From the IMG/VR virus record IMGVR_UViG_3300021185_003947: DNA of 64,000 nt. The stretch is one strand, 5' to 3'. Source of the stretch: a virus (lineage: Duplodnaviria; Caudoviricetes). The notes under the pieces are model-generated. The model saw nothing but the letters and a program-made list of their open reading frames with translations, did no database searches and had not been told where the DNA came from. Numbering within the stretch: the first letter of the stretch is position 1; each line of letters opens with the position of its first letter. The position numbers and the translations under genes are program-made. Positions 26,756-45,355 of this stretch are shown one piece after another.

Positions 26756-27045
26756 TATTTTACCTCATTAATATGTAGATCGCTGGCTTTATTTTCTATA
26801 GCATCTTCAATAATAGAAATCAAAACATCGCCGGCATGTTTTTGTAATTCTTCATTTTCTGAATTTAATGTTTCATCTGGACTAGTTTCAACATGAAAGT
26901 CAAACGTCATTTGTTCACCATCTTCCATGCGAATAGTGCCATATTGTATAACACTTTCTATAAAATCTCCAGTTAAAAATCTAATTTGCCAATCATCGTT
27001 ATCTCCTGGAATAAATTCATAATCTTTATTTTCTATATATTGCAT
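26755..27045 (-). CDS. Conserved hypothetical protein at the T4 gp40 position
   Basis: Acidic 96 aa between uvsX and 41; synteny only. Confidence 0.5.
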   Translation of the reverse strand: MQYIENKDYEFIPGDNDDWQIRFLTGDFIESVIQYGTIRMEDGEQMTFDFHVETSPDETLNSENEELQKHAGDVLISIIEDAIENKASDLHINEVK

Positions 27046-28100
27046 TACGACTCCATTTCTAGAATTTCATCCATATCAATTTCTGATTTATATCCAATTG
27101 TAAATTGATTTTTTACAAATTCTTTAAAGTTAGTATTAGCAAAAATAGGATCCCAAAATTCTTTTTCAAGAGTACCAGATTGTCTAACCTTTTTATCAGA
27201 AATTTCGCCAGTATCCATATTAACCGATGCATACCAACCATTAGATGGTTTAACTACATAGCCACCCGCCATGGCAACATCCAATAGACCAGAATATGTT
27301 TCAACACCACCTTCCCATGATACTGAAATAGGAATTTTAGACTTTTCTTTTACAAATCTAGATTTTTCAACATTAATAACAAAATCATAACCCGTAACTT
27401 CAGTTCCAGTTTTATTTTGCCTACGACCAAGAATCCAAATATTATTAGCACTATAATAGATACCAGTACCACCAGAAACTATTGCTTTTGGAAACAATCC
27501 GATTTCTTGATATGTGTGATTGACCGCTAACATGATAATATTTTTCATAGCTAGATATGGAGTAGTCATACGAAATAACGATTTAAGTTGTTTGGCTCTT
27601 GACATATCTGCTACAGACTTTTCGTTTTGAGCATCTTCAAGTTCTTTCTTTGATGCAAGGTTACCAATTGAATCAATAACAACAATAACATCATCTTTAG
27701 CATCAAGGCCTTCAAGTTGATTGACAAGATCAAATTTAAGTTCTTCTACATTTGTAATTGGTGTATGAAGAACACGTGATGGATCAATGCCAAATTGTTC
27801 AAAGTATGCTTGAGGTGAACCAAACTCACTGTCATAAAATAGCATGACAGCATCTTTCTTTTCTCGCAAATATGCACCGGCCATCAAAAGCGCAAAAGAA
27901 GTTTTAAAATGTTTAGATGGGCCAGCTAATACAGTAAGGCCAGGTGACATACCGCCATCAACTGAACCAGATAAAGCAACATTAACCATTGGTACATCAG
28001 TAGCAATAAGTTCTTTTGTATTAAAAAATTTAGACTCAGAAAGAACTTCTGTTGCTTTAAGTTTAGAATTCTTTTTAAGTTTATCCATAATGGACGCCAT
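27045..28100 (-). CDS. uvsX: RecA-like recombinase UvsX
   Basis: AGPSKHFKT, YDSEFG and DSIGNLAS. Confidence 0.96.
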   Translation of the reverse strand: MASIMDKLKKNSKLKATEVLSESKFFNTKELIATDVPMVNVALSGSVDGGMSPGLTVLAGPSKHFKTSFALLMAGAYLREKKDAVMLFYDSEFGSPQAYFEQFGIDPSRVLHTPITNVEELKFDLVNQLEGLDAKDDVIVVIDSIGNLASKKELEDAQNEKSVADMSRAKQLKSLFRMTTPYLAMKNIIMLAVNHTYQEIGLFPKAIVSGGTGIYYSANNIWILGRRQNKTGTEVTGYDFVINVEKSRFVKEKSKIPISVSWEGGVETYSGLLDVAMAGGYVVKPSNGWYASVNMDTGEISDKKVRQSGTLEKEFWDPIFANTNFKEFVKNQFTIGYKSEIDMDEILEMES

Positions 28101-28158: not shown

Positions 28159-28977
28159 TTATTTGTTAAATGAGATATTTTGTTCAAGCTCCCTTTTATC
28201 TTTTGTATATTCAGATCTAATTTTATTATTTGATTTAATTACTTCATCTAATAAAGAAAACGATATTGCATAATCTAAAAACGCTGAAGTGTCTTTTGGA
28301 AAACAAGCTCCACCAAAACCCATTTTGCCATCAAATCCTGGAACACTCGTATGAGAGTTACCAATCCTTGGATCTGATCTCATTGCATAAGTAATCTCAT
28401 CAAAATTACAATCATGTTTTTGTATTATATCATAGAATTGATTGAACCATAATACCTTTGTAGCAAGAAAACAATTAATTCCATATTTAATAAAACTTGC
28501 TTCTTTTAATGTCACATGGTGGCATGGGCAAGGTTTACATTTACTATATTTTTTATATATTTTCTCAATATTATTTGTATCTTTAATATGCCCTCCAAAT
28601 ATATGCATTGGTGGATTAATAAAATCTTTATCTGCAGATTTTTCATTTAAAAATTCAGGATTATAAACTACTCTATCACCAGAAAGTTTATCTATAATGT
28701 CAGGTGTAACTGTTGATTTTATTACAATATGTCCAGCTCTATTAAGCTTTAACCATTTGACAGTTTCAATTACTAGTTCAGCATTAATTGATCCGTCATT
28801 ATTCATAGGTGTTGGTAAACATATAAAAAAGATATCATCAAATGGATTAGTATCTTCTACTGTAGTATTATATTTAATATCGATTGGTGTAATATCACAC
28901 AGTTTTTTATTAAAACCATTAATAATAGCTTTGCCTACAAATCCACATCCAATAACAGATATTTTTAATTTTAGCAT
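28159..28977 (-). CDS. ugd: UDP-glucose/GDP-mannose dehydrogenase family (short form)
   Basis: IGCGFVG, CLPTP, KST, NPEFL and GFGGACFPKD. Confidence 0.88.
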   Translation of the reverse strand: MLKLKISVIGCGFVGKAIINGFNKKLCDITPIDIKYNTTVEDTNPFDDIFFICLPTPMNNDGSINAELVIETVKWLKLNRAGHIVIKSTVTPDIIDKLSGDRVVYNPEFLNEKSADKDFINPPMHIFGGHIKDTNNIEKIYKKYSKCKPCPCHHVTLKEASFIKYGINCFLATKVLWFNQFYDIIQKHDCNFDEITYAMRSDPRIGNSHTSVPGFDGKMGFGGACFPKDTSAFLDYAISFSLLDEVIKSNNKIRSEYTKDKRELEQNISFNK

Positions 28978-30176
28978 ATAAATTCCTCTAATGTGTTACT
29001 CACCTTATCATAATTTATAGTTTGTTTTTTATTACATTGAATAGCAAATTTTGCATCAATCATTTGGTTATCAAGTCTGCCGTGTACAAAAGATTGAACT
29101 TGTTCAGCCATATCCTGTGCAGTAGTCACAGGAACATTTTGACAAATCATATTAAGATTTTTTATTCCACCTTGTAACATAAAATCACCTGGAAGTTTCA
29201 TAATAGAAAGACATTCTCGAATAGTCAAATAACGATCTTCATCTGGATGAGTAAGTGATCCTGGCATATGACCTACAAACGCTCCAATATAATCTTTAGG
29301 TATTTCAGTAGTCTTACGCATAATATTACCGCCACTTTTTAGCTTATGATACATACGATTACATTTACCAGCTTCGTTTTCAAATCCTTTTTCTTTCATC
29401 CACTCACCTACTTGATCATATTTAATTCCAGATTTTTCAATTTCATCAAGTGGATTAGTACTCTTTATAATTATATCTTGAAATTTAGAATGACAAATGC
29501 CATTATTAAGTTCTTCAAGTACATATTTATAAAACGGATTTTTACTTGGTATATTTTTATTAACAATTATATTCATAGGATCATCTTCATGTAGATCTAC
29601 ATTACGAATAGTATCTTCAATTTTTTCATGTTTGCGTTCAATATAACTTAACATTGGTATCTTATCACCTTGCCAGAAAAAATAAAAAGTACGATCACGT
29701 ACTTGGCTTAGTCCATGAAGTATAGATTTTGTTTTATAGATACTAAATGTATATCCATTTTGACTAGCAATTCGTTTTAACTGTTCAACAACAGGTTCGC
29801 CCATTTTGCTAGCCAGTCTTGGAGCATTTTCACCCCAAAATACTTTAGGTTTTAGTGTGCCTAAAACATGCCGAGCAGTACTTAACATCCAATCATTATT
29901 AGCATTAGTCGACGATGCAGATGGGCTAAGACTTGATAATCCAGCACATGGGCAAACAGTATTAATAACATCAACACTTGGTATGTTATAAGGAGTATCA
30001 CCATCTAAATGATGATAGGGTACTTTGTTTTTATAGTATTCAACTAACTGTCTATCATTAGCTTCAAACGCAGAATAGCTTAAAATATATTCAGGTTTTG
30101 TACCAAAAACATTTTCTTGGGCGATTGTTTCACCACCAATAAGTGGCACAATAGATGCGTGTTTATATGTCATCAA
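28971..30176 (-). CDS. C5-cytosine methyltransferase-like protein with atypical motif I
   Basis: PCAG (IV), ENAP (VI), QVRDR (VIII), RYLTIRE (IX) and QNVP (X); FxGxG replaced by PLIGG. Confidence 0.7.
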   Translation of the reverse strand: MMTYKHASIVPLIGGETIAQENVFGTKPEYILSYSAFEANDRQLVEYYKNKVPYHHLDGDTPYNIPSVDVINTVCPCAGLSSLSPSASSTNANNDWMLSTARHVLGTLKPKVFWGENAPRLASKMGEPVVEQLKRIASQNGYTFSIYKTKSILHGLSQVRDRTFYFFWQGDKIPMLSYIERKHEKIEDTIRNVDLHEDDPMNIIVNKNIPSKNPFYKYVLEELNNGICHSKFQDIIIKSTNPLDEIEKSGIKYDQVGEWMKEKGFENEAGKCNRMYHKLKSGGNIMRKTTEIPKDYIGAFVGHMPGSLTHPDEDRYLTIRECLSIMKLPGDFMLQGGIKNLNMICQNVPVTTAQDMAEQVQSFVHGRLDNQMIDAKFAIQCNKKQTINYDKVSNTLEEFIC

Positions 30177-31201
30177 AAAAAGTCCTCTAGTGTATTACTA
30201 ATTTCTTCACCAGTCCAATGTGGATAATATTGTCTTGATAAATGTATTGATTGAGGCTTTTCCATATAATCAAAATCTAACTCTCCTTCTCTATTTGTGA
30301 GTTTATTGACCCATCGAATTATTTTAGCTCTTTTAGCTTTTGTTTCTAAAATTTCTCTAAATTTTAATCTGGCCTCATTGCGCTGTTCCCAAGTACCCCA
30401 GAAGGGTTGGTCTTTATAATAACCAGACTTTGGTAATTTGCGACTAGTATGCTCAATAGGCAAAAGTTCATATATAGAAACATTTTCAATAGGTAATGCC
30501 TCAACTGCAGTTATATATCTTTCTGCTAAGTTAATAGTATTTTCTAAAAAATCTCCATCAAGCCGACAAACGTGATGGCGAATGTCAATATTACCAAAAT
30601 AACATTCAAGCTCTTTGATATTTTCAAAATCACTTATATATGTTTGAAGACCATCATTTAATGCGCCATTTAGTGTTTTAAATGGTACACTATTTACGGT
30701 CCAGCTTGGACGATACATACAAATAGAATGACTATCACCAATTACAAGCTTATTAGTTATTAAAGGATACTTAATAGTTTGAGCAGTTTCATACATTCTT
30801 TTAAGATTATCAATATCAACTTCAAGCCATTCAGATTGAATATCATTACCCTTTGCTTTTGCTTTATCAATTCTTTCTTGAATCATTTCATGATAAGGTG
30901 GAAAGTCAATTGCTAATGAATATACTTTACCTTTGAATTTTGAAAAGTTACGAGTGTTAGCAGCATAGGGAAATCCCTTTACACCACCAAACACATTCAT
31001 TGATCCAGACCAATCATTGCCATGATAAACATACATTTCGTCGTAGTCATTATGATCTTCAATTTTACCAGAATAGTTGATAGTAATATCAACTCCGGTT
31101 TGTTTGATCATATCAGCATAGATTGCACCTTGAGCACCTCTATGAGATGCCATACGAGTAGCAACTGGAATAAATGGAGCATTTAATATAGCTTTTATCA
31201 T
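30173..31201 (-). CDS. Putative DNA-modifying protein: beta-glucosyltransferase-like N-domain fused to an SGNH-like domain
   Basis: N-half KAILN / NDYDEMYV / MNVFGG / KFKGKVYSL resembles T4 BGT as I recall it. C-half has IGDSH, GNID and SIHLS. Confidence 0.45.
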   Translation of the reverse strand: MIKAILNAPFIPVATRMASHRGAQGAIYADMIKQTGVDITINYSGKIEDHNDYDEMYVYHGNDWSGSMNVFGGVKGFPYAANTRNFSKFKGKVYSLAIDFPPYHEMIQERIDKAKAKGNDIQSEWLEVDIDNLKRMYETAQTIKYPLITNKLVIGDSHSICMYRPSWTVNSVPFKTLNGALNDGLQTYISDFENIKELECYFGNIDIRHHVCRLDGDFLENTINLAERYITAVEALPIENVSIYELLPIEHTSRKLPKSGYYKDQPFWGTWEQRNEARLKFREILETKAKRAKIIRWVNKLTNREGELDFDYMEKPQSIHLSRQYYPHWTGEEISNTLEDFF

Positions 31202-31207
31202 TATAGT

Positions 31208-31236
31208 AATATATCACACTTTCTTATAAATGTAAA
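31208..31236 (-). promoter_or_regulatory. sigma70-type early promoter
   Basis: TTTACA-N17-TATATT. Confidence 0.6.
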
Positions 31237-31239
31237 GGT

Positions 31240-32337
31240 CTAAACCATAAAAGATTCTAATGGTGATGGTTCAAGTTTTTTCTTTAAATTTTCAGCAATA
31301 TCAACAAACGAATCAAACGTTAATGGTAACATTCTTTTAGTTTGAGCCTTTGAATTATCTTTGATTCCAAGAAAACAATTAAATTGACAAAAAGTAATTT
31401 CAGTACCAAAGGTTGTGAGATTACCATTTCGTTCAAGATTTTCTTTATAGAACATTGCAGAAGTGTTATCCATTTCAAAAAACTCATGTTGATGATCTCT
31501 AACTGCTATTATATATGCTTCCATAATTTCATTATTTTTAAATTTAACTTCTGGAAATACATACTCAAGACCACGTTTAGCACCAGGGCCAACTAAACAA
31601 TAATTATCATCCTCATCAATATTAGGTAAATCATTACATCTAGAAAAATTGCAGGGTGGGTGATATGAAAAATATGGTCCAATACCACGATGAGTAGAGA
31701 ACCAATCACAAACATCACCTAGTTTATTATTTTTATCTTGTACAACCTTACTCATACCAAGATCATCTAAATGAGCCATCCATCTAATCATGTGAGATAA
31801 AGCAAACTTTTCGTTTGGATCTTCATCTTCTTCTCTACAAAAATTACGAGCAGATGTTTGAAGACTAGTTTGAAGTTGAGTTGCACCCCAAACTTTCATT
31901 TTGTTTTTATTAGTATTTAGATTGTTATTAATCCAATGATAATAATCTTTTTTTAGTTTATATTCATCAAAATCAATAATTTTACTATAGTCAGTAGAGT
32001 CTGAAGCAACCAAAGTAAGTGTTGGCATACCTACAAACTTTACTGCCATAGCATTGAGAATTTTATTTCTCATTGAAGTATCTTGGTTAAATACAAAATT
32101 CTCTAACCAATATACCTCGGCATGTTTAGAACGATTTGGGTTCCAATATGAAACTTCTTGTCTCATTGCAGGGCCAAAATCTTCAGAGTATTCGTATTCG
32201 TTAATTTGACCCCTTTCTCTTAAAGTTTCTCTTTTAAAAAAATCAAGAACCCACTTATTAAAATAATTAAAATTATTTGGATCACGGGTCTGTTTTAACG
32301 TTTTAAGCGAAATCATGCCGCACATTTTCCTTTTCAA
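31240..32337 (-). CDS. aGPT-Pplase / amino-acid:DNA transferase-like protein (HhH-glycosylase fold)
   Basis: RGIGPYFSY...D...VGPGAKRGL..VFP...EITFCQF pattern. True start may be internal. Confidence 0.6.
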   Translation of the reverse strand: MKRKMCGMISLKTLKQTRDPNNFNYFNKWVLDFFKRETLRERGQINEYEYSEDFGPAMRQEVSYWNPNRSKHAEVYWLENFVFNQDTSMRNKILNAMAVKFVGMPTLTLVASDSTDYSKIIDFDEYKLKKDYYHWINNNLNTNKNKMKVWGATQLQTSLQTSARNFCREEDEDPNEKFALSHMIRWMAHLDDLGMSKVVQDKNNKLGDVCDWFSTHRGIGPYFSYHPPCNFSRCNDLPNIDEDDNYCLVGPGAKRGLEYVFPEVKFKNNEIMEAYIIAVRDHQHEFFEMDNTSAMFYKENLERNGNLTTFGTEITFCQFNCFLGIKDNSKAQTKRMLPLTFDSFVDIAENLKKKLEPSPLESFMV

Positions 32338-32737
32338 CTAAATCGTGTTGTAGCAATACCACATTAATGTGGGGCATCATTTTTCTAATGATTTCTGCTT
32401 GAATTGGATCATCTTCATAATGTATTCCAAATCTATATCCAAGTGTTTCAAGATGAAAAAGTGTCCGGCCTTTATGGCGGCCGGAGTCTTCTCTTGATTT
32501 TGATTCAAATGGTGTTGGATTTAAATACAATTCATTGGTTATATTTTTAGATTTAAGCATTGCTTCAGTTTCAGATCTTTCTTCATTAGATCGACCTGTA
32601 ATGATAACATCTCTATCACCTGGATAAACACCATCATATTTATCCATAAAAATAACACCATCAATATCAAAAGAATTAATTATTTTATCTGGAACAGCAT
32701 TTTGCTCTACATAATTATTCATAATCAGTTTTTCCAT
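32303..32737 (-). CDS. HAD-superfamily phosphatase
   Basis: FDIDGV, ITGRS, K and YEDD; directly downstream of the MIPS gene. Confidence 0.8.
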   Translation of the reverse strand: MEKLIMNNYVEQNAVPDKIINSFDIDGVIFMDKYDGVYPGDRDVIITGRSNEERSETEAMLKSKNITNELYLNPTPFESKSREDSGRHKGRTLFHLETLGYRFGIHYEDDPIQAEIIRKMMPHINVVLLQHDLVEKENVRHDFA

Positions 32738-34010
32738 CTTGGTATGTATATGGCAAATCTTTAGCTTTAGGATTAGATTTAGCTAATTGTGGCCGAGTCA
32801 TATTAGTAAGCTCTCGACGAGCAAGGGCATCACATTCAAACTTTGCATCAGATGTTGTAAGCTGAACAGGTGGAGTTTTTTGTGTATAAGCACTTGGCCC
32901 ACGAAGAATGCCAACAATTCCCATTTCAGCAGCTACTCGACAGAAACGAATTGCTGATATAACAACACCACCTGAGTTTGGTGAGTCTTGACATGATAGT
33001 CTAGCTTGAAGAGTATAACGAGCTCCACCAAATCCAAATGCTACAATATCAAGATCTGCAATCTTATTATCAGATCCAACATAATCACCACCTGGTTTTT
33101 GCATAACAGTTAGAGATGGGCCGGCATATAGTGTATCACCGGCATAGTCAACACCACGGACAGTATTCTGTCCTTTTAAAACATTTTCTTTTGAGATATG
33201 TTTATTATGTAAACGCTCTTTTTCAGCCATATTAATAAAGTCAGTGTTTGATGTAACACCATTACGAATATGTTCACGGCCTTGGGTTGCTCCACCAATT
33301 CGATTGGTTTGAGTATGATATGTAACATGTAAACCACCATCAATCATTGCACCCTGCAATACCTCAGATAAACGAGATGCTCCCCAAGCTGAACGCATAT
33401 CAGATCCAACAAAAGTAAGACCTGCATTAATAAATTTTTGTTCGATTTCTTGAGTTTCTTTTGTTTCAATCAATGTTGGAATACAATTAACAAAATGTAC
33501 TTCAGCAGCAAGAGCAACGTCTAAATAAAAGCGAGTAGCTTTTTCAGATCCAACTGGCAGATAATTAATAAGAACTTCGACACCAGATGATTTGATAAGA
33601 CTAACAATATCATCAAATGACTTAGCTGATTCAGCACCAACTCTAAATGATACTTCTTCAGGGTAATATTCCATCCATTCTGCAACACCATCAAGTGTTG
33701 GGCTTGAATACACTTGAGCGCCTTTGGCTACAGCTCCAGGTGAATTGTTTCCAGATTCTAATATTTCTTGAACATGATTCATTGCGCAATTTGGTTTTGC
33801 TCGTAAAGCTTCAATAAGAGGACGATTAACTTTACGACGGTCTACGTCAAAGCCAATTACAAATTCAACAGAGCTTGTATCGTATCCACCAATATCTGGA
33901 TACATAAGACCTACAGTATCATTTGGATTTTCATTATAATATTGCATGCCTTCAACAAGCGACTGTGCGCAGTTTCCTACACCAATAATACCAACTTTAA
34001 TTTTCTTCAT
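32715..34010 (-). CDS. ino1: myo-inositol-1-phosphate synthase homologue (Ino1 type)
   Basis: IGVGNCAQSLVEG, FDVDRRKV, YLPVGSE, VNCIP, TDFINM, ISK and DSPNS. Confidence 0.88.
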   Translation of the reverse strand: MKKIKVGIIGVGNCAQSLVEGMQYYNENPNDTVGLMYPDIGGYDTSSVEFVIGFDVDRRKVNRPLIEALRAKPNCAMNHVQEILESGNNSPGAVAKGAQVYSSPTLDGVAEWMEYYPEEVSFRVGAESAKSFDDIVSLIKSSGVEVLINYLPVGSEKATRFYLDVALAAEVHFVNCIPTLIETKETQEIEQKFINAGLTFVGSDMRSAWGASRLSEVLQGAMIDGGLHVTYHTQTNRIGGATQGREHIRNGVTSNTDFINMAEKERLHNKHISKENVLKGQNTVRGVDYAGDTLYAGPSLTVMQKPGGDYVGSDNKIADLDIVAFGFGGARYTLQARLSCQDSPNSGGVVISAIRFCRVAAEMGIVGILRGPSAYTQKTPPVQLTTSDAKFECDALARRELTNMTRPQLAKSNPKAKDLPYTYQDGKTDYE

Positions 34011-34137
34011 TTTTACTTCCTTTATTTCAGTTTTTTAAAGTGAGATTGGCTGCATAAGCAGAGTAGCTCACGTTATAGTTATAATAGTTTTAGTGATTAT
34101 ATTATATTACATTTTTAATAAAATGTAAACTAAAAGT

Positions 34138-34671
34138 TTACAAATTAACCCATCTATATTTAAGACCAGCTTCTTTGTAATATGACTTAGATCTTTGCCA
34201 TGAGTCATGCCATTTTTCATCAATCTTTTGCCGTGGCATGACTAGTTCAGCAACTCCTACTTGAATAAGTCCTTTTGCGCAATCAGAACAAGTAGGAAGA
34301 CCTGATACGTAAACAGTTGATTTATTTAAACACACACCATTAAAAGATGCATTATAAATCATGTTCATTTCAGCATGAACAATTCTAACATATTTCTCTT
34401 TTCGATTACTATATAGGTTAGGACTATCAAGCATTCCTCGAGGAAATCCATTATATCCTTGAGCTAAGACTTGCCCTTTTGAACCTACAGCAATGGCTCC
34501 AATTTGGCTTGAAGGATCTTTAGACCATCCAGCAATAGTTTTAGCTAGCTCTAAATATCTTAGATCCCACTTATGTTGTCGGGCAAGAAAAGCTTTATCA
34601 TTTTTTTTATGAGCATTCTCTCTATCTTTCATATCATTATAATTATTTGACAAGATTAAAATGCCTTTCAT
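34138..34671 (-). CDS. cd: dCMP deaminase
   Basis: SKDPSSQIGA, GYNGFPRG, HAEMN and PTCSDC. Confidence 0.93.
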   Translation of the reverse strand: MKGILILSNNYNDMKDRENAHKKNDKAFLARQHKWDLRYLELAKTIAGWSKDPSSQIGAIAVGSKGQVLAQGYNGFPRGMLDSPNLYSNRKEKYVRIVHAEMNMIYNASFNGVCLNKSTVYVSGLPTCSDCAKGLIQVGVAELVMPRQKIDEKWHDSWQRSKSYYKEAGLKYRWVNL

Positions 34672-35332
34672 ATACGTGAAGATTTTGTACCTGCCAGATC
34701 ATCATACCAGCGCTAACTGGATCTTTAACTATACAGATATTATTTAAATCATCTACTAATTTATTTTGTACATGTCGTTGCCAAGCATAATCGTTCTTAT
34801 AACCAAACACCACATCATTAGACCGCATTTGGACTACACAATGAAGTAAATTATCACGAATATAGTAAGTGACAGCGTTAGTACAAATGAAATCAGATTT
34901 TCCATTTTCGTTAAACTCCACCCAAATAGAAGGCCGATTGTAGATCATAGAAGCACGTCTACCATCGGGATTTTTGTCTAGTTCAGCCAATACGTTTTGA
35001 TATTGATCATAGTATTTATTCGAATAAATTAGATGACCATAGTTTGAATTAATTTCACCATGTGTATTAGCAGCATATTTCCAAGCAGCTGGAGCATCTT
35101 CGCCAGACTCTTTATTAATATCAAAGATATTAGTTGATTGGCTATCATACCAATCCAATTCTTTTTGAATATATGAAAGAGACGGTTTACCAAATATAGA
35201 TGGCTCATCAGCAATAAATGATGCACCAATCATTTCAATAGTGCGTGCGCCAGTTTTATCAATAGTAAATGCTTCATCATTTAATTCATCAATAAAGAAT
35301 TGACGAACATCTTTTACAGAATTCATTTTCAT
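34643..35332 (-). CDS. 42: dCMP hydroxymethyltransferase (T4 gp42-like)
   Basis: DKTGARTIEMIGASFIADEP, GEINSNYG, DFICT and MRSNDVVFGYKNDYAWQ, with the cytosine-specifying Asp as in T4 gp42. Confidence 0.88.
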   Translation of the reverse strand: MKMNSVKDVRQFFIDELNDEAFTIDKTGARTIEMIGASFIADEPSIFGKPSLSYIQKELDWYDSQSTNIFDINKESGEDAPAAWKYAANTHGEINSNYGHLIYSNKYYDQYQNVLAELDKNPDGRRASMIYNRPSIWVEFNENGKSDFICTNAVTYYIRDNLLHCVVQMRSNDVVFGYKNDYAWQRHVQNKLVDDLNNICIVKDPVSAGMMIWQVQNLHVYERHFNLVK

Positions 35333-35736
35333 TGCTCACATACTCTCTTTCTTAGATCGCTTGTTGAAAAGCGATGATCACGTTTATTAAAATAAAGATC
35401 TATACCACGTTGTCGACATTCATCTTTACCAGTAAAATCTTTACTCCTATATTCTTCACCAAGTATCCTAACATCAATTGGATACATGTTTATTATATCA
35501 CATAAATCGCTTTCTGTACAATAAATAATCACTTCATCTACATATTTTATTGCATTGAGCTGTACCTGTCTTTCCACAATATTTTGAATTGGAGCATTCT
35601 TTTCTTTACGATCGATGGTAGGATCTACTTGCAGACCGCAGATCAAATAGTCACACTGTGACTTTGCTTCTCTGAGCATAGATACATGTCCAGCATGAAG
35701 TAAATCAAAAGTACTACAAGTAAATCCCACTTTCAT
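35329..35736 (-). CDS. Cytidylyltransferase (TagD/HIGH family)
   Basis: TFDLLHAGH, GLQVDPT and RDHRFSTS. Confidence 0.88.
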   Translation of the reverse strand: MKVGFTCSTFDLLHAGHVSMLREAKSQCDYLICGLQVDPTIDRKEKNAPIQNIVERQVQLNAIKYVDEVIIYCTESDLCDIINMYPIDVRILGEEYRSKDFTGKDECRQRGIDLYFNKRDHRFSTSDLRKRVCEQ

Positions 35737-36041
35737 TAGTCGTGTTCTCCATTATTTCTACGACCGTTATATCCATCAATTCTATCAAAAAGCTTAGGAT
35801 TGCGCTTTGCAGTATCAAATGTGCCGACTGTAATCACAATTGCTGCTAATAGCAATGTATGAACGATTGCGTTAATACCCCAAAACATAATGCTTCCTAA
35901 ATACATAGAGCATACAGATACCCACATCCAAGCAAGTATCTGCATAATCAAATGTCTAACTTGAAGATTTGGTATATTTCTTAAAGGATTAATATCTGCA
36001 TCCATGACACTATTCCAAGCATCATTAATAAATTCTCTCAT
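35736..36041 (-). CDS. Small membrane protein
   Basis: Two TM segments; NPLRNIP. Confidence 0.65.
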   Translation of the reverse strand: MREFINDAWNSVMDADINPLRNIPNLQVRHLIMQILAWMWVSVCSMYLGSIMFWGINAIVHTLLLAAIVITVGTFDTAKRNPKLFDRIDGYNGRRNNGEHD

Positions 36042-36384
36042 TGTCCGATCTCCCTACAGTTTCTCTTATGATATCGTTGTGGTTAAACTCAGCCCAGTAT
36101 AACTCAAAAGCTACACCAGGTTCAATACATTCAAATTGATGATAAACTCCTGGTTTCACTTTAGTATATTCACCAGCTTGTAAAATAGTTTCATCGATTA
36201 AATCGTAATCATTTTGCCATACGCGTACAAGCATTATTCCTGACTCGATATAGAAACCATTCCATTTGTACTCATGCAGATGTTTTGAGCATACTCCTGT
36301 AGCTTCCATTTCAATACGATGAAATTCTAAAGTGCCATTAGCTTCAATGAGTTCAGTCATTCCCCAGACTTTACCAGCTTTCAA
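36025..36384 (-). CDS. Cupin-domain protein (sugar isomerase-like)
   Basis: GKVWG, SKHLHE.K.NGF and PGVYHQF. Confidence 0.75.
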   Translation of the reverse strand: MKAGKVWGMTELIEANGTLEFHRIEMEATGVCSKHLHEYKWNGFYIESGIMLVRVWQNDYDLIDETILQAGEYTKVKPGVYHQFECIEPGVAFELYWAEFNHNDIIRETVGRSDNERIY

Positions 36385-36860
36385 TTATTTACTCCTTCAT
36401 AGTTAGCAAGAAATTCTCTATCAATTTCTAAAGACCAATCTTTAGTAACATATGTTTTACCATTCCATTTGTATGTACCAGCAAAAACATAATCACGAGT
36501 TTTTTTATCATTTAAATATATGATAACCCAATCAGGCTGATATAAGTTAGGATACTTTTTACGCTTTTCTTTCAAACGATATAATACATTAGGAATGTAA
36601 TTAAAAACTTTTGTTACTTTTACTTCAACATCAATACCTTCTGGAGATATTACATCCTGATATGGTAAAGGATTATCAGTAAAATTACATTTTTCAATAA
36701 GAAACTGTTCAGCCGCCAGACCGTACATACTAGTAACAGTAATATCATCAAGAGTTCTACCCTTTCGAGTAGACTCTTTATCAAAAATAAGTTGACTCTC
36801 AGCCTTTGCCTTGGCCAAGAGTTCTATCAAATTTATATCTTTAAGACTGAACGTTCTCAT
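36381..36860 (-). CDS. Hypothetical protein, possible PD-(D/E)xK fold
   Basis: AAE...QDVI....VEVK. Confidence 0.5.
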   Translation of the reverse strand: MRTFSLKDINLIELLAKAKAESQLIFDKESTRKGRTLDDITVTSMYGLAAEQFLIEKCNFTDNPLPYQDVISPEGIDVEVKVTKVFNYIPNVLYRLKEKRKKYPNLYQPDWVIIYLNDKKTRDYVFAGTYKWNGKTYVTKDWSLEIDREFLANYEGVNN

Positions 36861-37212
36861 TTGGTTTTCCTTTAGGCACTATAGGACGATTTAGAAAATC
36901 ACGATCATCTGTCTGGCCATCAATGGCACCATTCATATAAGCAGCAAAGAATGACGCATAATTAGTAAGATCAACACATGAGTCTTCAAGGGACTCGAAA
37001 TTTGGTTCATAGTTTGGATCTAGTTCCATAGCCTCAAGAACAGATTGTAACCGCAAAACTTTTGCAGCCATAGTATCAAGAAGACTAGCGCAGCCTCGAG
37101 GATAATAATGAGCTTGTTTTACTCGAGAATTTGGATTTTGATAATCATTACTTTTTTTGATTTGTACTTCTGCACATTTTTGCAGAAATCTAATTGAATA
37201 TTTGTCTTTCAT
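36841..37212 (-). CDS. Nucleotide-modification-associated domain 1 (DUF1599-like)
   Basis: KKSNDY...K..RL...ESLEDSCVDLTNY; start reassigned to MKDKY. Confidence 0.65.
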   Translation of the reverse strand: MKDKYSIRFLQKCAEVQIKKSNDYQNPNSRVKQAHYYPRGCASLLDTMAAKVLRLQSVLEAMELDPNYEPNFESLEDSCVDLTNYASFFAAYMNGAIDGQTDDRDFLNRPIVPKGKPNENVQS

Positions 37213-37213
37213 T

Positions 37214-37402
37214 TTATAATCCTTTTTCTGTTGAAACATAGGCATTGTTTGCCTTTGCTTTTGATAAAGATCTTCTATTAAGATAATAATTTGGTTTCTC
37301 CAAATTAGTATGTTTTTTGATCCTGGATGTTGGAATTTTTTGAATTCTACCACCATTATCAAGATAAGCTTTTACTAAATTATTAATTTCAGCTTTATGC
37401 AT
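37214..37402 (-). CDS. Hypothetical protein
   Basis: YLDNGGRIQKIP motif, 62 aa. Confidence 0.55.
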   Translation of the reverse strand: MHKAEINNLVKAYLDNGGRIQKIPTSRIKKHTNLEKPNYYLNRRSLSKAKANNAYVSTEKGL

Positions 37403-37583
37403 CTGGCAATTCCTTTCTGTCTCGTTGAAAGATGATTTCTTCGATTTCTTCTAGAGTCTCTCTGCATGTAGCTAGAAGAGGAGAGTCTGATGCAAGGATA
37501 AGTCTCTTAGCAGCGAAGATTTGATCGTAACGATCTAGACCTGTAGGGATTTGATTAGCGATTGTTTGAGTAAATAGGTTCAT
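37395..37583 (-). CDS. Hypothetical early protein
   Basis: SD AGGAG; promoter at 37607-37635. Confidence 0.6.
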   Translation of the reverse strand: MNLFTQTIANQIPTGLDRYDQIFAAKRLILASDSPLLATCRETLEEIEEIIFQRDRKELPDA

Positions 37584-37606
37584 TGGTAACTCCTTTTGTT
37601 ATATTC

Positions 37607-37635
37607 TTTATATAACACTTTTAAGCAAATGTAAA
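37607..37635 (-). promoter_or_regulatory. sigma70-type early promoter
   Basis: TTTACA-N17-TATA(A/T)A-type -10. Confidence 0.6.
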
Positions 37636-37650
37636 GGATTATTTTCAATA

Positions 37651-38586
37651 TTATGCATTTTTATATGCATATTCTATAGCTCTATCAGCTTCAATATTTA
37701 ATGGTCGTTTTTCATATCTACGGCTTGTTTCATTATCCAATTCTCTTACTAATTGTTCAATTTCATATGACGATATTGGATATTCTTTTTTAATAGCACT
37801 TATTGCTGTTGATACCATGATCTTATATATCATAGCGTATCTACCAGAATTATCAATACCAGATATAGCAAACCATTCTTTAATATGATTCTTATTAATA
37901 AATGGACAGTCTCTATATCCAGACCAATTAAAATTAGTATTTTCCATTTTATTTTTACGATGTTCTATAACCTGAGCTTGCATTTCAGGTGTAAGCCTAT
38001 CCATAAATGATGACCCTCGTTTTTCAGTATATGGATGTTTGGATATTAACTGCTCAGGATCAATATACACACCACTATTACTGAATATAAAATTGTTAGC
38101 GCCAGCATACGTTGCAGGGATGTAATACATTCGAGATAAATCTTTAGTTTGTCCATCTCCAATTTCGCCGAGTTCTTTATTGAGGGCGAACCAAAAATGT
38201 CTAATTTTATCAGATTTAATCTTTGCTTTAATTGGAAAGACAAGTCTAAACTTTGGATGATTATCGGAACTACTAGCAGTACTATAGCAAACATAATGAA
38301 AACTGCCGAAACGATTATATAATTCATCCTTTAGGTTTCCTTTAAACTCATGATCATCAACATCAACAGCAGTCCAACCTGACCAATCCAAAACATTTTT
38401 GTTTGCCCGAGTCGTATCATCAACATAACTAGCTGGTGATATAAGTTCAGCATCTTTTTTTCCTTTCCGAGGTATCTCAGACAATTTATACAACAGCTTC
38501 TCAAATTGAGAGAAGCTTTTAAATTTCATGTTACGATTAGTTTTGTTATCGTATATAGATTTAAAGAATGTCGCTGAGACTTCCAT
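37651..38586 (-). CDS. Archaeo-eukaryotic-type (AEP) primase
   Basis: AVDVDD, YSTASS, KFRLVFP and DLSRMYYIP; start reassigned to MEVSATF. Confidence 0.7.
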   Translation of the reverse strand: MEVSATFFKSIYDNKTNRNMKFKSFSQFEKLLYKLSEIPRKGKKDAELISPASYVDDTTRANKNVLDWSGWTAVDVDDHEFKGNLKDELYNRFGSFHYVCYSTASSSDNHPKFRLVFPIKAKIKSDKIRHFWFALNKELGEIGDGQTKDLSRMYYIPATYAGANNFIFSNSGVYIDPEQLISKHPYTEKRGSSFMDRLTPEMQAQVIEHRKNKMENTNFNWSGYRDCPFINKNHIKEWFAISGIDNSGRYAMIYKIMVSTAISAIKKEYPISSYEIEQLVRELDNETSRRYEKRPLNIEADRAIEYAYKNA

Positions 38587-38974
38587 GATTACCTCTATGA
38601 GTTGGTGCAGTCCATCCTTCAGGCTTAAGCAAATCAGGCAATCCAAATGGATTAGGACGACCAGGCTTTACGCCAGGAGATTTAGTCATATTAGCATCAA
38701 ATACTTTTGTCCAAGCCTCATTACCATTTACACCTAAAACTTCAAGTGTACCAATAGCAAATACACACATATCAATTAAACCATCAACTACTTCTTCAGC
38801 ATCTTTTGCTTCAATAGCATCCATAGTCTCGTCATATTCTTCTTTAATCATTGACATACGAAATGCAAGATATTTTGCCATCAATTCCTTATTATCTTTA
38901 TTAGCTTCAAACCAATCATTTACTCCGAATTTTTTATGCATTTGCTCGATGTCATTAAACCATACTTTAGTCAT
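38561..38974 (-). CDS. All-alpha NTP pyrophosphohydrolase (MazG/PRA-PH-like; possible dCTPase/dUTPase)
   Basis: EEYDE...EEVVDGLID...ANMTK...KPEGW. Confidence 0.75.
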   Translation of the reverse strand: MTKVWFNDIEQMHKKFGVNDWFEANKDNKELMAKYLAFRMSMIKEEYDETMDAIEAKDAEEVVDGLIDMCVFAIGTLEVLGVNGNEAWTKVFDANMTKSPGVKPGRPNPFGLPDLLKPEGWTAPTHRGNHGSLSDIL

Positions 38975-39000
38975 TTAGTTCTCCATTATTATATAAAGTA

Positions 39001-39717
39001 TTATAACATATTTTTAACAGCTTGTAAATAAGAAAATGTATCTTCCCAACTATTCACTTGATATGTACTATTTTCTCCTCCACGATCATGTACAGCTAAT
39101 GCGATTTCATGATCATTTCCACCTTTATCACATTTGTCTCCAAAGAAATAGATAACATCTGAAGAATCAAAATCATCAAGAATTTGTGATTTATTATTTC
39201 CTTTAGCAGTAATATCTATACCGGTTTCGCCAGCGACTTGAAATTCAAACAATGGAAATCGCTCTCGTAGCTTAGCAGCAATATTATTTCTTTCATTAGT
39301 ATAATTGTCATATGCTACGTATTGAATTCGAGTACGATTACCTATATTTCTTCCTGGAATAGACAAGTTATATAGACCCGGACGTTCCTCAATATGCTGT
39401 CCGTTTTTAACTGGAAATGAACTGTCAGTAATTGCTTTGTTTAAATAGCCCCACATTTCATCTGGTAACTTTAAAGTAGAAGTACGAACATTCTTACCGC
39501 GTTCCCACACGTCATTTCCACAACATTGATAATTGCGCTTAGTCATTCCCCAAATAACTTCTCCAACTTGCTCTCGTGTTTTTTGAATATCGCTACCTGT
39601 TACTAAATACACTTTATTTAAAGTACAAAAATCAAAGAAAAACTTTGAAAACTCTTCATCCATTTTACCTCTGCTTGGAGTAAGAGTTCCATCAACATCA
39701 AAAATAAAATTAATCAT
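39001..39717 (-). CDS. HAD IIB phosphomannomutase (eukaryotic PMM type)
   Basis: FDVDGTLTPSR, VTGSD, IEER and FFGDK...GGNDHEI. Confidence 0.85.
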   Translation of the reverse strand: MINFIFDVDGTLTPSRGKMDEEFSKFFFDFCTLNKVYLVTGSDIQKTREQVGEVIWGMTKRNYQCCGNDVWERGKNVRTSTLKLPDEMWGYLNKAITDSSFPVKNGQHIEERPGLYNLSIPGRNIGNRTRIQYVAYDNYTNERNNIAAKLRERFPLFEFQVAGETGIDITAKGNNKSQILDDFDSSDVIYFFGDKCDKGGNDHEIALAVHDRGGENSTYQVNSWEDTFSYLQAVKNML

Positions 39718-40942
39718 TTATTAAGCTTTCTAGAATGTTTAACACACTTTCACTATCGTCATGAGTACCACGTCTAATAGCTCCCTTGACACAATTTCTA
39801 GTAAAGTCCAATGGATATCGCTTGCCTTCTTTATCCATTCCCGTATTGATTAAATATACATTGCATTTATTATCATTAATTTTACTCATTAGTAAATCAC
39901 TATAAACATGTATCGGTCTTGGCATAAAAGGTGAGCCATAGCATGGACTAAAGAGTGGCTTGATTTCTGTTGCTCCCTGCTCAGTTCCGGGCATTTGGCT
40001 TGTGTATCCAGTTTCAAAGAAACGTCGTACAGTCTCATCAGAAATTTTAGATACCGGAGGAAACACGCCTTTCGCATCCATAGTAAGAAAAAAGATATTA
40101 GTTGGATGATTAAATTGTTGAGGTTTATGATATGCGTTTTCAACACAAGTAATTGGATAACTTAATCTTGCATTTGGTACACCTGGATTTTCTACAACTA
40201 AGCAATCTTCTGATCTTGCTTTTTCTACTGCATCAAATATAGTCTTATGTGTCTCTGGTGTTAATCCTTCACTTTTTGCGTAACAACCAGTTTCTATCAT
40301 TTCAATTCCATCGTGATTCCAAGATACTTCGTCATCACTAATTAATCTATAATCCGGATCGCTACTAAGAGTAGTTTTACCAGTACCACTTAATCCAAAC
40401 ATTAAATTAGTTGTATCATTATATGTAAAGGCACTACAATGCATTGGTAAAATATCATATCTTGGTAGTTCAAAACTAACTATACCAAATATACCTTTTT
40501 TGATTTCACCTAAAAATGTTGTTCCAGCAATTAACATAGTTTTAGTATCAAGATTTACATAGATTTTTGGTTCATCGACCTTTAATTCTGTGTTATGCCA
40601 AATCGTCCAATCAGAATCATGTGCGCTATGTGGATAAACTTGAGGATCAAACCCATCAGGCAATACATCAAACATATTCTTAACAAATTGCTCATGTCTC
40701 GCATCATTAGTAATTATTTTAAATCTGATATTACATGTCTCAAGGCATAAAGGTTCTTTATAAATCAATTGAGATATTAACCTAGGCATCATCAAATCTG
40801 CAAGTTGAAGAAAGTCTTCCATCTCTCCAACTTTATAATACTTTGGTCGAGTCTTATCTAAACACTTTGTTTTTTCTCCAAAAAAGTATTTATTTTCTGG
40901 GCTTCGGCCAGTTGGATTTGTTGTAATATTAATATTTGTCAT
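39710..40942 (-). CDS. pckA: Phosphoenolpyruvate carboxykinase (ATP), compact form
   Basis: [42 protein letters not shown] and NTG. Confidence 0.9.
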
Positions 40943-43530
40943 CCAAAGAAATCCTCTAATGTTGCTCTATCTTCAACTGACCAGCCAACAGCATCAAGAA
41001 TTGGCGTGAGCGGTTCAATAAAAGTTTTATTAAATTGTATATCATAGTTTATATATTTATGAAGATTAAGCTCAGGTGGTAAGTATTCAGGAAAGGATAT
41101 GACATTTTCTTTAATAGGATTAGGCATCTTAAGATAAGTAAATTTAATCTTTTCACCATTTTGTATCATATCATATTTCTTATTAAGAGCTTTGTCTTTA
41201 ATTTCATGATTATATAAAAGAGAACCACGAACATGAATTGGTGTACCCTTTTTATAAATTAAATTTCTATCTTGCCATTTGGATACTTCTGAAACGCCAC
41301 GAGGAAATGATACTTTTTCAGGAGGTAATGATTTAAATTCTTGTCTAAAGTTATCTATAAACTTACGAGTTGCAAGTTCAGATCCAGTAACGATTATTTT
41401 AAAAGCTTCTTTAAATTTATCACGAACTACTTCGGGAGTACTTGATTTAATAGCTTCAATCCCCATGATTTTAAGTTTTGGTTCAGCGTATTGTACACCT
41501 TCATTATTATGTACATTGAGAATATATCTTTTCTTTGCTGTCCATATGCCACGATCAGCTATAACTTCTCTACCCATTTCCATACGAGGAGTATAAGCAT
41601 TTAATCTATGAAATAATTTATCATATGACTTAGCAATTATGGGTTCGAAGTGTGTCTTACAAATTTTGTCCAATGCTTTAACAGAGTCCTTTGGCGCCAG
41701 TTGAGCAATAAGAGGACCAAAATTAATGTAGACTGAGTCAGTGTCAATAGCAATAACATAATCTTTTCCTTTAGTTTTAAGTATTTTATTCATTTCAACA
41801 TTGATAGCTCTTTCAGCCCACTTTATTGAAAGTTGACCAGTAAGAGTTACACTTTCGGCAAGAGCATTATCAAAATATTTAAAATACTTATTTGCCATTG
41901 CGCCATACAAAGAATTAAGTAGAATCTTAATAGCCATTTGATTATTTTCTAGCTGATTAATTTCTGACTCAAGAGCTGTATTTTTTGTTTGCTCATACTC
42001 TTGTTTTACTTTAAGCATTTTTTGTTTAATTACACTACGTTCAGCATAGTATTCAACAATTAATTCAGGAATAATACCTTGCTTATTTTTACTAAATGGA
42101 ACACCACTTGCACATATAGAATACTCATCAGAAGCAGCCTGACCATCAATAAAATAGTGATCAACACCTTGGGTATATTCACCAAATGATTTATCTTTTA
42201 CAAGAGTTTCAGGAGATATATTAGATTGAACAATTATGTTTGGATATAGAGAATTTAAATCAAATGATACGACCCAATCATGTGAACCAACATGTGGATC
42301 TTTAACATAACCTCCAGCAATTGCGTGAGATTTTTGTGGTTCACGGGTACGATCTAAATTACCAGCTGGGTTTTTCTTTGAAGTTTCAGTAGCTCCATGA
42401 ACAGCATACATACATGGTTTAATCTGTTCAATTGGTGATATTACATTATTTTTAAGAAGTCTTCGATAAATGATTGATTCCCATATTGAAGTTGTACCCA
42501 TTGTATCACCAAGATTAACACCACCTTTATATGCCATAGTCAATCCAAGATTAATAAGACCCATCTTTTGATCAATACGGTCTACAAGTTGAACATCTTT
42601 AATATTATAGTCAATAAACTTTTGATGGTCAGCTTTATATAAACTGTGAAGATTACCATGTTCTTCATAAGATAATTTTTTTTCATTGAGGACTGTATAA
42701 GCAATATGGTCAAGCTTATAAGATTCTTGAGCGCCATATGAATAACCAAACTTTTTGAATAATTCAATATAGTCTGCGGTTTGAATACCAACTAATTCAT
42801 AACTATACTGAGTACGACCCATCTTAGTTATTTGTCTATCATTAACTAGCTTCCATGGAGAAAGTTTATTGGCTGCTTCTTCAGTACCAATATTTTTGAT
42901 ACGATTTACAAGATAAGGAATATCAAAGAAACGAATATGCCAACCTGTAATAACATCTGGATAATTGTTTACCCAATAGTGTAAAAAGGAAGCTAACATA
43001 GCTTTTTCAGTATCAAATTTATGATACTTGATTAGATCACCATTCATTTCTAATTCTGTTTTATTTGTATCGTATTCACCTAAACCCCACACTTCGTAAA
43101 TAGAAGATTTACTAGATTTAAGAGCAATTGATATAATAGGATATGCTGCTTCTTCTGGAATAGGAAAACCATCATCAGATGCTACTTCAATATCAAAATT
43201 AACAACGTTAATGTGATTTTGATTAAAATTTATATTATCTGGAAATTTATCTGTAATAAATTGTTGGATATAGTTTCGAGTGCCATAGACTTTAACGCCT
43301 TCCATTTCTTTATAAGTTTCAAGAAAATCTTTTGACTCACTCATTTTTTGAAATTTAATAGCATTTAGATATCCACCATCGAAAGAACGAAATTTTGTGG
43401 GTTCTTTCGATGGCAAATATTGTGTTGGACCGAATTTAATACGATCTTCTATTCGAGTACCATTTTCAGTATAGCCTCTATATAAAATAGTATTACCATA
43501 CCGATTAACTGATGTGTAAAAATTATTCAA
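40939..43530 (-). CDS. 43: Family B DNA polymerase (T4 gp43)
   Basis: [23 protein letters not shown] and DTDS; single uninterrupted ORF. Confidence 0.97.
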
Positions 43531-43867: not shown

Positions 43868-44050
43868 TTAGCTACGCAATTTTTGTATTTCCATCATACA
43901 TTTTCTCGATTCCTCGTAATATCCCATTCGTGCGAGTTCCGCCGCTGCCTTGGAATATCCCATTGTCAAGTTGAAGCGTTCTAATGCAGACCAAAATCCC
44001 GACAATGGCGAAAATATAGTAGATGCTATACTTGTTGCCATTAGCTCCAT
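43868..44050 (-). CDS. Hypothetical protein
   Basis: 60 aa overlapping the DUF1127 gene. Confidence 0.55.
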   Translation of the reverse strand: MELMATSIASTIFSPLSGFWSALERFNLTMGYSKAAAELARMGYYEESRKCMMEIQKLRS

Positions 44051-44805: not shown

Positions 44806-44886
44806 TGGACAATTCCTACGAATTGCCTCTATAGTATATATAGTACTTTATTTAAAAAAGTAAATAGGTTATATCAAAAAAAAATA

Positions 44887-45300: not shown

Positions 45301-45355
45301 TTTTTCAACTCACTTTTAATATATTCTATTCACGATAATGTACTCATGATAGATA

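Follow-up and report, generated by a model that had tools for sequence, protein, structure and literature searches.

A cyclase of the myo-inositol-phosphate synthase family among predicted DNA-modifying enzymes of a marine T4-like phage: a candidate route to cyclitol-bearing 5-hydroxymethylcytosine

What does a cyclase of the myo-inositol-phosphate synthase (MIPS) family do a few genes away from the hydroxymethylcytosine gene of a T4-like phage? The question is raised by the viral record IMGVR_UViG_3300021185_003947, of which we analysed a stretch of 64,000 nucleotides (called the window here). It belongs to a marine T4-like phage, whose DNA polymerase gp43 is 53% identical to that of Phage C48C1 and about 46% identical to those of cyanomyoviruses. 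Between uvsX and gp43 the window carries a gene cluster (28159–39717) which the original prediction, made from the letters alone, had read as one pathway for the modification of 5-hydroxymethylcytosine (5hmC) with inositol. We arrive at a narrower reading, in which a conserved core of the cluster supplies 5hmC and then attaches a cyclitol or cyclitol phosphate to it in the DNA, and we give this attachment about even chances.

Families, folds, conserved residues, C-terminal tails, synteny and co-occurrence are the observations from which we start. Gene identities were assigned with Pfam, PHROGs and NCBIfam profiles, and all 20 window proteins were mapped onto 147 related viral contigs retrieved with MIPS and p342 queries. 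Over 25.3–54.9 kb every gene lies on the minus strand, including all cluster genes given with coordinates below, and the predicted inventory is indeed co-oriented between uvsX and gp43, with refinements to individual calls. From uvsX to gp43 the order is short NDP-sugar dehydrogenase, C5-cytosine-methyltransferase-like protein (C5MT), p342, p365, HAD phosphatase, MIPS, dCMP deaminase and gp42, followed by a nucleotidyltransferase, a membrane protein, a cupin, an unknown protein, an Nmad1/DUF1599 protein, the primase-like p331, MazG, a phosphomannomutase (PMM) and a phosphoenolpyruvate carboxykinase (PEPCK). In the 147 contigs a core order recurs, namely gp43, MazG, p331, Nmad1, gp42, dCMP deaminase, MIPS, HAD, p365, p342, C5MT and uvsX.

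The first step can be read from the gp42 homologue (34643..35332), which is 52% identical to T4 gp42 and matches the T4 dCMP hydroxymethylase structure 1b49 with an E-value of 1.3e-70. The thymidylate synthase (TS) homologues of T4-like phages yield either 5-hydroxymethyl-dCMP (5hm-dCMP) or 5-hydroxy-dCMP, the latter being marked by Asn at the position of D169 in E. coli ThyA, and those specific for dCMP have an acidic residue at L143 and, in place of N177, an Asp (PMC13326640). In the window protein the motif SDFICTN holds the catalytic Cys and the L143-equivalent Asp (DFICTN aligns with T4 DFMCTN and SDF with SDF), and in the stretch MRSNDVVFGYKND the D169 equivalent is kept and an Asp stands at the N177 position. 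More precisely, MRSND has Asp at D169 as in T4, not the Asn of the 5-hydroxy-dCMP synthases, and YKND aligns with T4 FRND, which places the Asp for dCMP specificity. Since the D169, N177 and L143 positions all carry Asp as in T4, the enzyme is by its signature residues a 5hm-dCMP synthase and not of the 5-hydroxy-dCMP type. The predicted hydroxymethylase with its cytosine-type Asp, and with it a T4-type 5hmC pathway, is thereby supported. Two further predicted supply enzymes are recognized by Pfam, a dCMP deaminase (34138..34671; PF00383, 3.2e-15) and a MazG/PRA-PH-type NTP pyrophosphatase that is a candidate dCTPase (38561..38974; PF01503, 3.1e-8). The Nmad1/DUF1599 protein (36841..37362) is a constant neighbour of gp42 and present in 39 of 83 loci; the window copy itself gives no profile match, and its assignment comes from the homologues, 14 of 16 of which match PF07659 (best E 4.6e-8).

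Next to the deaminase gene lies the predicted MIPS homologue with its coupled HAD phosphatase, and both identifications stand. MIPS (32715..34010, 431 aa) is a divergent member of its family that matches Ino1 of M. tuberculosis (1gr0) with an E-value of 4.7e-48, and its catalytic Lys and Asp residues (K270, K274, K316, K378, D204 and D342) are invariant. About 40 further conserved residues, absent from M. tuberculosis Ino1, follow at the C-terminus in the phage clade and close with ...LPYTFQxGxTDYE. The paired protein is a capless HAD-type phosphatase of 144 aa (32303..32737), and 21 homologues keep its four motifs, DxDGV (D24, D26 and V28), TGR (T47), K89 and D109-D110, without exception. Its profile matches are weak (phrog_415, 1.3e-7; Acid_phosphat_B in 5 of the 21 members, best E 0.0013), and a profile search against PDB sequences gave no usable match. 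In the gap before MIPS a sigma-70-like site is present (34101..34129, TTTACA-17-TATAAT, 11 of 12 positions, a consensus match only). As to the early promoters of the original prediction, such 11-of-12 sites do lie in the gaps ahead of gp43, MazG and MIPS, but their total count is not above that in shuffled sequence.

The genomic contexts of this pair link it to base modification. In 80 of 82 loci the two genes stand side by side. Among 130 MIPS loci a gene of the amino-acid:DNA transferase (AADT) family lies within 1.5 kb in 118, five stand beside QueC, six are ended by the contig edge, and one is Ralstonia phage RP13, in which an ADDT-like gene lies 5 kb from MIPS and 5-hydroxymethyldeoxyuridine (5-hmdU) DNA kinase 2 is also present. 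Caulobacter phage Cr30 has an ADDT (1.3e-52) two genes upstream of MIPS, and a further context combines a TET/JBP oxygenase, an FkbM methyltransferase, ADDT, MIPS, HAD and P-loop nucleotide kinase 3. This recurrence beside AADT-family genes on several unrelated phage backbones supports a functional tie between the pair and DNA-base-modifying enzymes, as had been predicted. MIPS shares about 70% identity even where the gp43 of the phages compared share only 26–41%; judged by these identities, the pair is horizontally mobile as a cassette, and since it also occurs without gp42 it is not specific for hmC. FkbM-type methyltransferases were also seen inside the MIPS-p365-p342 cassette of some gp42-type relatives (L026, 5392–5964; L083, 3930–4646; L148, 8090–8815) and in the TET/JBP context of L062 (7990–8721); the window has no copy.

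The AADT-family gene of the window itself is p365 (31240..32325), which belongs to the superfamily of the 5-hmdU DNA kinase helical domain and the AADTs. It matches PF18723 (HMUDK_hel) with 1.3e-9 and 38.3 bits against a cut-off of 25, and in the Atlas the clusters closest to it are HMUDK_hel, ADDT and aGPT-Pplase3. The predicted aGPT-Pplase-type transferase is therefore right as to superfamily, the profile match itself being HMUDK_hel. E309, C313 and Q314 are invariant, C313 in 18 sequences, and this Cys is the putative counterpart of the active-site thiolate proposed for AADTs by Lee et al. (PMC8989533). In the Aeromonas phages 31 and 44RR2.8t p342 and p365 are joined as one protein of 795 aa (ORF233c in 44RR2.8t), and gp42 was found in 44RR2.8t, the one of these fusion carriers that was searched. 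In a profile search against PDB sequences p365 gave no usable match, and hhalign of its profile against the p342-adjacent genes of MIPS-less contigs gave probabilities of at most 1%, as it did against DpdA-like and ADDT proteins; these negatives carry little weight because the method missed even a Pfam-confirmed ADDT. The long TTG-started open reading frame of p365 (31240–32337) is probably overlong, with the true start probably at the ATG at 32325, since in close relatives the reading frame is interrupted by a stop before the corresponding Met. In 44RR2.8t (L003, 4408–8388) the fused ORF233c directly follows ORF234c, a sodium:solute symporter whose annotation notes a similarity to sodium/glucose cotransporters, and the donor of that phage might be imported through the symporter and not synthesised.

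The partner of p365 in this fusion, p342 (30173..31201), has no Pfam match and was assigned from folds and a family profile. In the AlphaFold2 model (pLDDT 92.7; 93.8 for residues 1–146 folded alone) a domain like the N-terminal part of T4 beta-glucosyltransferase (BGT; residues 1–146) is followed by an SGNH Ser-His domain (148–330), a putative acyl-transfer/esterase unit. The latter superposes on the SGNH structure 2hsj with Z 13.9 and a root-mean-square deviation (rmsd) of 2.6 Å over 160 residues, and dozens of SGNH chains follow with Z 10–13.7. GDSH (155–158), GNID (203–206) and S318/H320 are invariant; in block V (S318-x-H320) the Asp of the DxxH motif is lacking at -3, and an invariant E314 is close by. 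For the N-domain, residues 1–137 of T4 BGT (1c3j) are the top match by VIA (Z 7.4, rmsd 2.7, 107 residues), Foldseek gives 1qkj with a probability of 0.99, and hhalign of the p342 family profile against T4 b-gt gives a probability of 79% with E 1.5e-5 and 30% identity over 63 columns. We therefore hold with moderate confidence that the modelled N-domain is homologous to the N-terminal acceptor (DNA-binding) domain of BGT, and the predicted BGT-N/SGNH fusion is supported by folds and profile alike. The C-terminal UDP-glucose-binding Rossmann domain of BGT is missing from p342, where 148–330 is the SGNH domain; for the complete model BGT is not among the 50 best matches by Z. Since T4 runs 43, 42, b-gt, uvsX and the window mirrors this order, p342 is located at the b-gt site. 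The prediction that no canonical alpha- or beta-glucosyltransferase is encoded can be refined: tblastn of T4 alpha-gt against the window gave nothing, and T4 beta-gt picked up p342 as its sole match.

The third enzyme is the C5MT-like protein (28971..30176), which had been recognized correctly (PF00145, 1.1e-18) and shows distant matches to M.HaeIII and M.HhaI. The catalytic motifs PC, ENA, QxRxR, RE and QNV are invariant (P76-C77 of motif IV, E116-N117 of VI, Q158/R160/R162 of VIII, and R320-E321 and Q346-N347 of IX and X). Its S-adenosylmethionine (SAM) motifs are degenerate, as motif I reads V-P-L-I-G-G and not FxGxG, and the motif II position is E, Q, K or A among the homologues.

What p342, p365 and C5MT have in common is their C-terminus. 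A tail [ST]LE[DES]F[FIM] is shared by gp43 (ATLEDFFG), p342 (NTLEDFF), p365 (SPLESFMV) and C5MT (NTLEEFIC) and kept in the homologues, and it is not present on the small-molecule enzymes of the cluster. T4 gp43 ends with ASLDFLFG and T4 gp55 contains SLDFLY, both of which are clamp-binding peptides. The presumed docking site in the window is the gp45 sliding clamp (47504..48187; PF09116, 1.9e-9; 27% identity to T4 gp45). A complex prediction with three copies of gp45 and the last 42 residues of p342 scored 0.59 against 0.38 for the best control, with runs agreeing in at least 48% of the contacts and a partner pLDDT of about 38–40; this is weak and was not used as evidence. Of the solved complexes 51 of 78 attain the mark applied in that prediction, as against 2 of 108 mismatched pairs, and passes at 0.60 or below comprise 5 of the 78 solved complexes and all 4 passing mismatches out of 180 (harder ones included). 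The reported interaction of T4 alpha-glucosyltransferase with gp45 has been contested by a 2025 preprint and is an unsafe precedent for clamp tethering. A clamp-like tail on the HAD protein of two relatives was rejected as read-through in the frame that overlaps the p365 start. Similar tails were seen elsewhere: in Stenotrophomonas phage IME-SM1 the polymerase ends with SSLEDLFGW and a DpdA-like protein with NSLDDLFG (L002, 12479–13693), the TET/JBP protein of L062 (6689–7990) ends with SLADFF, and a 196-aa open reading frame of the window without Pfam match (51234–51824) has the clamp-like tail SDLQDFLE. Such a tail may quite generally mark those DNA modification enzymes of T4-like phages that are tethered to the clamp.

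What follows is inferred, namely which donor is used, how 5hmC is activated, in which order the steps run and which adduct results. In a first layer, acting on the nucleotide pool, gp42, dCMP deaminase, the MazG-like pyrophosphatase and Nmad1 would cause 5hmC to replace cytosine in the DNA. In a second, post-replicative layer p342, p365 and the C5MT-like protein would dock on the sliding clamp via their polymerase-like tails. The MIPS+HAD donor cassette with its own promoter-like site would make the cyclitol, or its phosphate, from a hexose phosphate. Activation of 5hmC in DNA could take place through O-acylation by the SGNH domain of p342 or through addition of a Cys at C6, p342 and/or the SAM-less methylase fold thus supplying the activation that a P-loop kinase gives in the thymidine pathways. 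p365 would then exchange the leaving group for a hydroxyl of the cyclitol, leading to an ether-linked cyclitol on 5hmC, and HAD would strip the phosphate before or after the transfer. A bolder proposal is that MIPS+HAD is a portable donor module for at least three base chemistries (gp42-made 5hmC, TET/JBP- or kinase-activated hydroxymethyl-pyrimidines, and 7-deazaguanine) which serves here for a kinase-independent, clamp-tethered cyclitol ether of 5hmC. We put it forward tentatively, with the balance somewhat against it.

Several points weigh against a cyclitol on 5hmC. MIPS reaches 197 bits with TIGR03450 and the Ino1 equivalog cut-off is 638, it also matches a five-membered-cyclitol-phosphate synthase (6k96, E 7.7e-28), and in the phage clade about 14 residues that M. 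tuberculosis Ino1 does not have are inserted ahead of NTDF; for these reasons its product may be something other than myo-inositol phosphate. No 5-hydroxymethyl-pyrimidine DNA kinase was detected in the 64-kb window with a Walker-A pattern or by tblastn with HMUD2 and Ploopntkinase3, which returned only clamp loader, helicase, gp46 and PEPCK, and known AADTs require a phosphorylated hydroxymethyl group. Inserted genes are known to accumulate in this early region in T4-like phages, so that adjacency is weaker evidence here than in a bacterial operon, and as the loci were recruited by similarity to the window's own proteins their counts describe a biased sample. Finally, five loci, including Stenotrophomonas phage IME-SM1, have MIPS+HAD among 7-deazaguanine genes (FolE, QueC-like, QueE) with no AADT, which makes a role other than that of a donor for hydroxymethyl-pyrimidines possible. 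In these loci the pair adjoins a DpdA/TGT-like protein (an Atlas lead only).

The alternative that survives best, although we consider it unlikely, is that MIPS+HAD is an auxiliary metabolic module, making inositol for instance as an osmolyte or signal or for phospholipid or envelope glycan, that it stands beside DNA enzymes only owing to the hyperplasticity of the early region in T4-like phages, and that the clamp-tailed enzymes add another, host-supplied group to 5hmC. Such a separation would fit the several phages that have MIPS+HAD without gp42, p342 or p365, the Aeromonas phages that employ the p342-p365 fusion without MIPS, and the metabolic accessory genes of the window (PEPCK, PMM, short NDP-sugar dehydrogenase, rfaE-like nucleotidyltransferase). 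It does not fit so well that at all evaluable loci a base-modifying enzyme is encoded no more than a few genes from the pair, that the pair accompanies AADT-family genes over backbones with very different polymerases, and that FkbM-type methyltransferases stand inside the cassette in gp42 and TET/JBP contexts alike. A further argument comes from the relatives with gp42 and p342 and no MIPS, in which exactly the same slot is taken by another biosynthetic cassette, a pyridoxal phosphate (PLP) enzyme and unknown proteins. With this exchange and the FkbM insertions, the region behaves like a modular biosynthetic cluster whose donor can be swapped. The PLP enzyme (phrog_7093, threonine-dehydratase-like) is accompanied by proteins of 401–459 aa and 329–353 aa of no known family (L110, 5691–9981; L099, 5964–9965; L136, 5038–6243), and this alternative cassette probably makes a different, likewise undescribed hypermodification of hmC.

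A second alternative, to which we assign a still smaller probability, is that an ester or other small group, for example in O-acyl-5hmC, is set by p342 with or without the C5MT-like protein, the cyclitol being a cofactor, carrier or regulator and not part of the base. In favour of it, p342 is the most constant partner of gp42, found in some contigs without p365, MIPS or C5MT; its SGNH triad motifs are invariant, and the SGNH O-acetyltransferases PatB and OatA appear among its structural matches. However, an unrelated gene for a protein of about 330–400 aa always adjoins p342 in those contigs, so that p342 is rarely alone, and the recurrent pairing of MIPS with AADT genes is left unexplained.

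The cyclitol reading that we prefer leaves out the sugar genes, which are restricted to this phage lineage. The short NDP-sugar dehydrogenase (28159..28977, 272 aa) was predicted as UDP-glucose dehydrogenase, and it has the N-terminal and central domains (PF00984 and PF03721) and the catalytic motif GGACFPKD, but not the C-terminal UDP-binding domain; it scores 136 bits with TIGR03026 (cut-off 189.8) and is found in 2 of 83 loci. The predicted cytidylyltransferase (35329..35736, 135 aa) is a small nucleotidyltransferase (PF01467, 1.3e-12) matching rfaE domain II and TagD about equally and far under both cut-offs (TIGR02199, 75 against 181.5 bits; TIGR01518, 70 against 165), and it recurs only in the near-identical contig L017. 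It is followed by a small membrane protein (35736..36041) with a hydrophobic stretch in its translation and by a WbuC-like cupin (36025..36384; TIGR04366, 1.5e-4), which had been predicted and lies just under the Pfam threshold for Cupin_2 (26.5 against 27.2 bits). The eukaryote-type PMM (39001..39717) agrees with the prediction (PF03332, 2.8e-24) and occurs elsewhere only in L017. A compact ATP-PEPCK of 410 aa (39710..40942; PF01293, 1e-91) overlaps the gp43 stop and is in none of the related contigs retrieved. Genes of the dehydrogenase and rfaE types have been described as lipopolysaccharide-related auxiliary metabolic genes of pelagimyophages (PMC7029224). Nucleotidyltransferase, membrane protein, cupin and PMM are limited to this phage and near-identical contigs, and from this distribution nucleotidyltransferase, cupin, short dehydrogenase, PMM and PEPCK are best classed as lineage-specific accessory sugar genes outside the conserved module. 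The original prediction of all twelve genes acting as one pathway is thus not borne out, and its CDP-inositol and sugar-acid steps find no comparative support. The full route from Glc-6-P over inositol-1-P and CDP-inositol (made by the 135-aa protein) to 5hmC decorated via the dehydrogenase, cupin, PMM and methylase-like protein, for which speaks that all genes are present and co-oriented, is in our view very improbable, as nucleotidyltransferase, cupin, PMM and PEPCK are missing from relatives that keep the core, save near-identical contigs, as the transferase resembles heptose-1-P adenylyltransferase and glycerol-3-P cytidylyltransferase whereas known inositol-1-P cytidylyltransferases belong to the sugar-nucleotidyltransferase family, as the dehydrogenase has no UDP-binding domain, and as no glycosyltransferase-type enzyme for a CDP or UDP donor was found.

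The cluster is bounded by the uvsX recombinase (27045..28100; PF21134 T4_UVSX_C, 4.4e-16, and RecA) and by gp43 (40939..43530; PF00136 and PF03104), which is 29% identical to T4 gp43 over its full length. p331 (37651..38646) is primase-polymerase-like (phrog_9765 DNA primase, 1.5e-54). In a megablast search the 12.8-kb cluster had zero matches among 50,697 phage records, and G001, the nearest record, is a fragment of 11 kb that lacks MIPS. Near-identical phage sequence is present in marine metagenomes of at least 10 studies. In four RNA-library runs from two studies contigs span the whole cluster with 95–100% identity, which is no proof of transcription as DNA carry-over is possible. Contigs from two metatranscriptome runs are 95–99% identical to the window and diverge at 31545 (in p365) and 34735 (in gp42) into unrelated sequence, which suggests strain variants with differing content between these points. 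The 7-deazaguanine clusters with MIPS+HAD are carried by Stenotrophomonas Menderaviruses and marine contigs (L002, 9320–14620; L019, 8204–14058; L031, 7275–12435). At 44041–46337 the window has an Hsp20 gene, a DUF1127 protein and an Rv2179c-like 3'-5' exoribonuclease among RegA and clamp-loader genes, and at 56000–62000 the G+C content rises from about 0.33 to 0.42–0.44 and the genes turn to the plus strand.

To our knowledge, the phage pyrimidine hypermodifications known so far all attach a sugar, an amino acid or a polyamine, and in the literature searched, the coverage of which is incomplete, we found no report of an inositol- or cyclitol-bearing DNA base. If our reading is true, a cyclitol would add a new chemical class to the natural DNA bases, and one common in the sea, the cassette being present in more than 100 viral contigs. 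The encounter of such DNA with restriction, CRISPR and type IV systems would be altered, and its recovery in sequencing libraries may be biased. The BGT-N/SGNH fusion, the AADT relative in an hmC context and the SAM-less C5-methylase fold are potential DNA-labelling tools and might give insight into kinase-free activation of hydroxymethyl-pyrimidines. As the cassette has cultured carriers (Caulobacter phage Cr30, Ralstonia phage RP13 and Stenotrophomonas Menderaviruses), it is directly testable. What is added here is the p342 BGT-N/SGNH fold with its synteny, the shared clamp-type tails, the alternative cassette in the same slot, the separation of the accessory genes from the core and the identification of these cultured carriers.

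Among known systems, the thymidine hypermodifications of ViI, M6, PaMx11, SP10 and PhiW-14 rely on a TS-family hydroxymethylase, a 5-hmdU DNA kinase and an aGPT-Pplase or AADT (PMC8989533). As in these pathways, the hydroxymethyl-pyrimidine would be formed as nucleotide and then substituted on the polymer, p365 is in the same helical superfamily with an invariant Cys as proposed for AADTs, and relatives carry variable tailoring genes (PLP enzyme, methyltransferase); ViI even forms an O-linked (serine ether) intermediate, which resembles the ether proposed here. In contrast, the base in the window is cytosine and not uracil, there is no P-loop DNA kinase in the window, a BGT-N/SGNH partner is fused or adjacent, the donor genes point to a cyclitol and not an amino acid, and the enzymes carry clamp-type tails. 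With the glucosyl-5hmC system of T4 the window shares gp42 (52%), the order 43, 42, [transferase], uvsX and the BGT acceptor domain. It differs in that an SGNH domain replaces the UDP-glucose-binding domain, alpha-gt is absent from the window, and AADT-like and methylase-like enzymes come in, along with a cassette for synthesis of the donor.

The arabinosylation of 5-hydroxycytosine in RB69 and DLP3 (PMC13326640) is alike in the T4-like phage background, in a TS homologue for the first step and in a donor-synthesis cluster with a small HAD phosphatase, whereas the window homologue has Asp at D169 (5hm type) and the window has no GT-B arabinosyltransferases. The phage 5hmC system of TET/JBP, methyltransferase and glycosyltransferase (bioRxiv 10.1101/2023.12.21.572611) likewise modifies 5hmC after replication, and relatives of the MIPS cassette adjoin a TET/JBP oxygenase; unlike there, 5hmC in the window would come from the nucleotide pool via gp42, and the SAM motifs of the methylase-like protein are degenerate. 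MIPS itself shares with Ino1 (1gr0) and 6k96 the fold family, an NAD-binding N-terminus and the SK..SK, DSPNS and KxPP motifs, and it is set apart by GSDMRSA in place of GDDIKSQ, by the insertion of about 14 and the extension of about 40 residues, and by a score far under the Ino1 equivalog cut-off.

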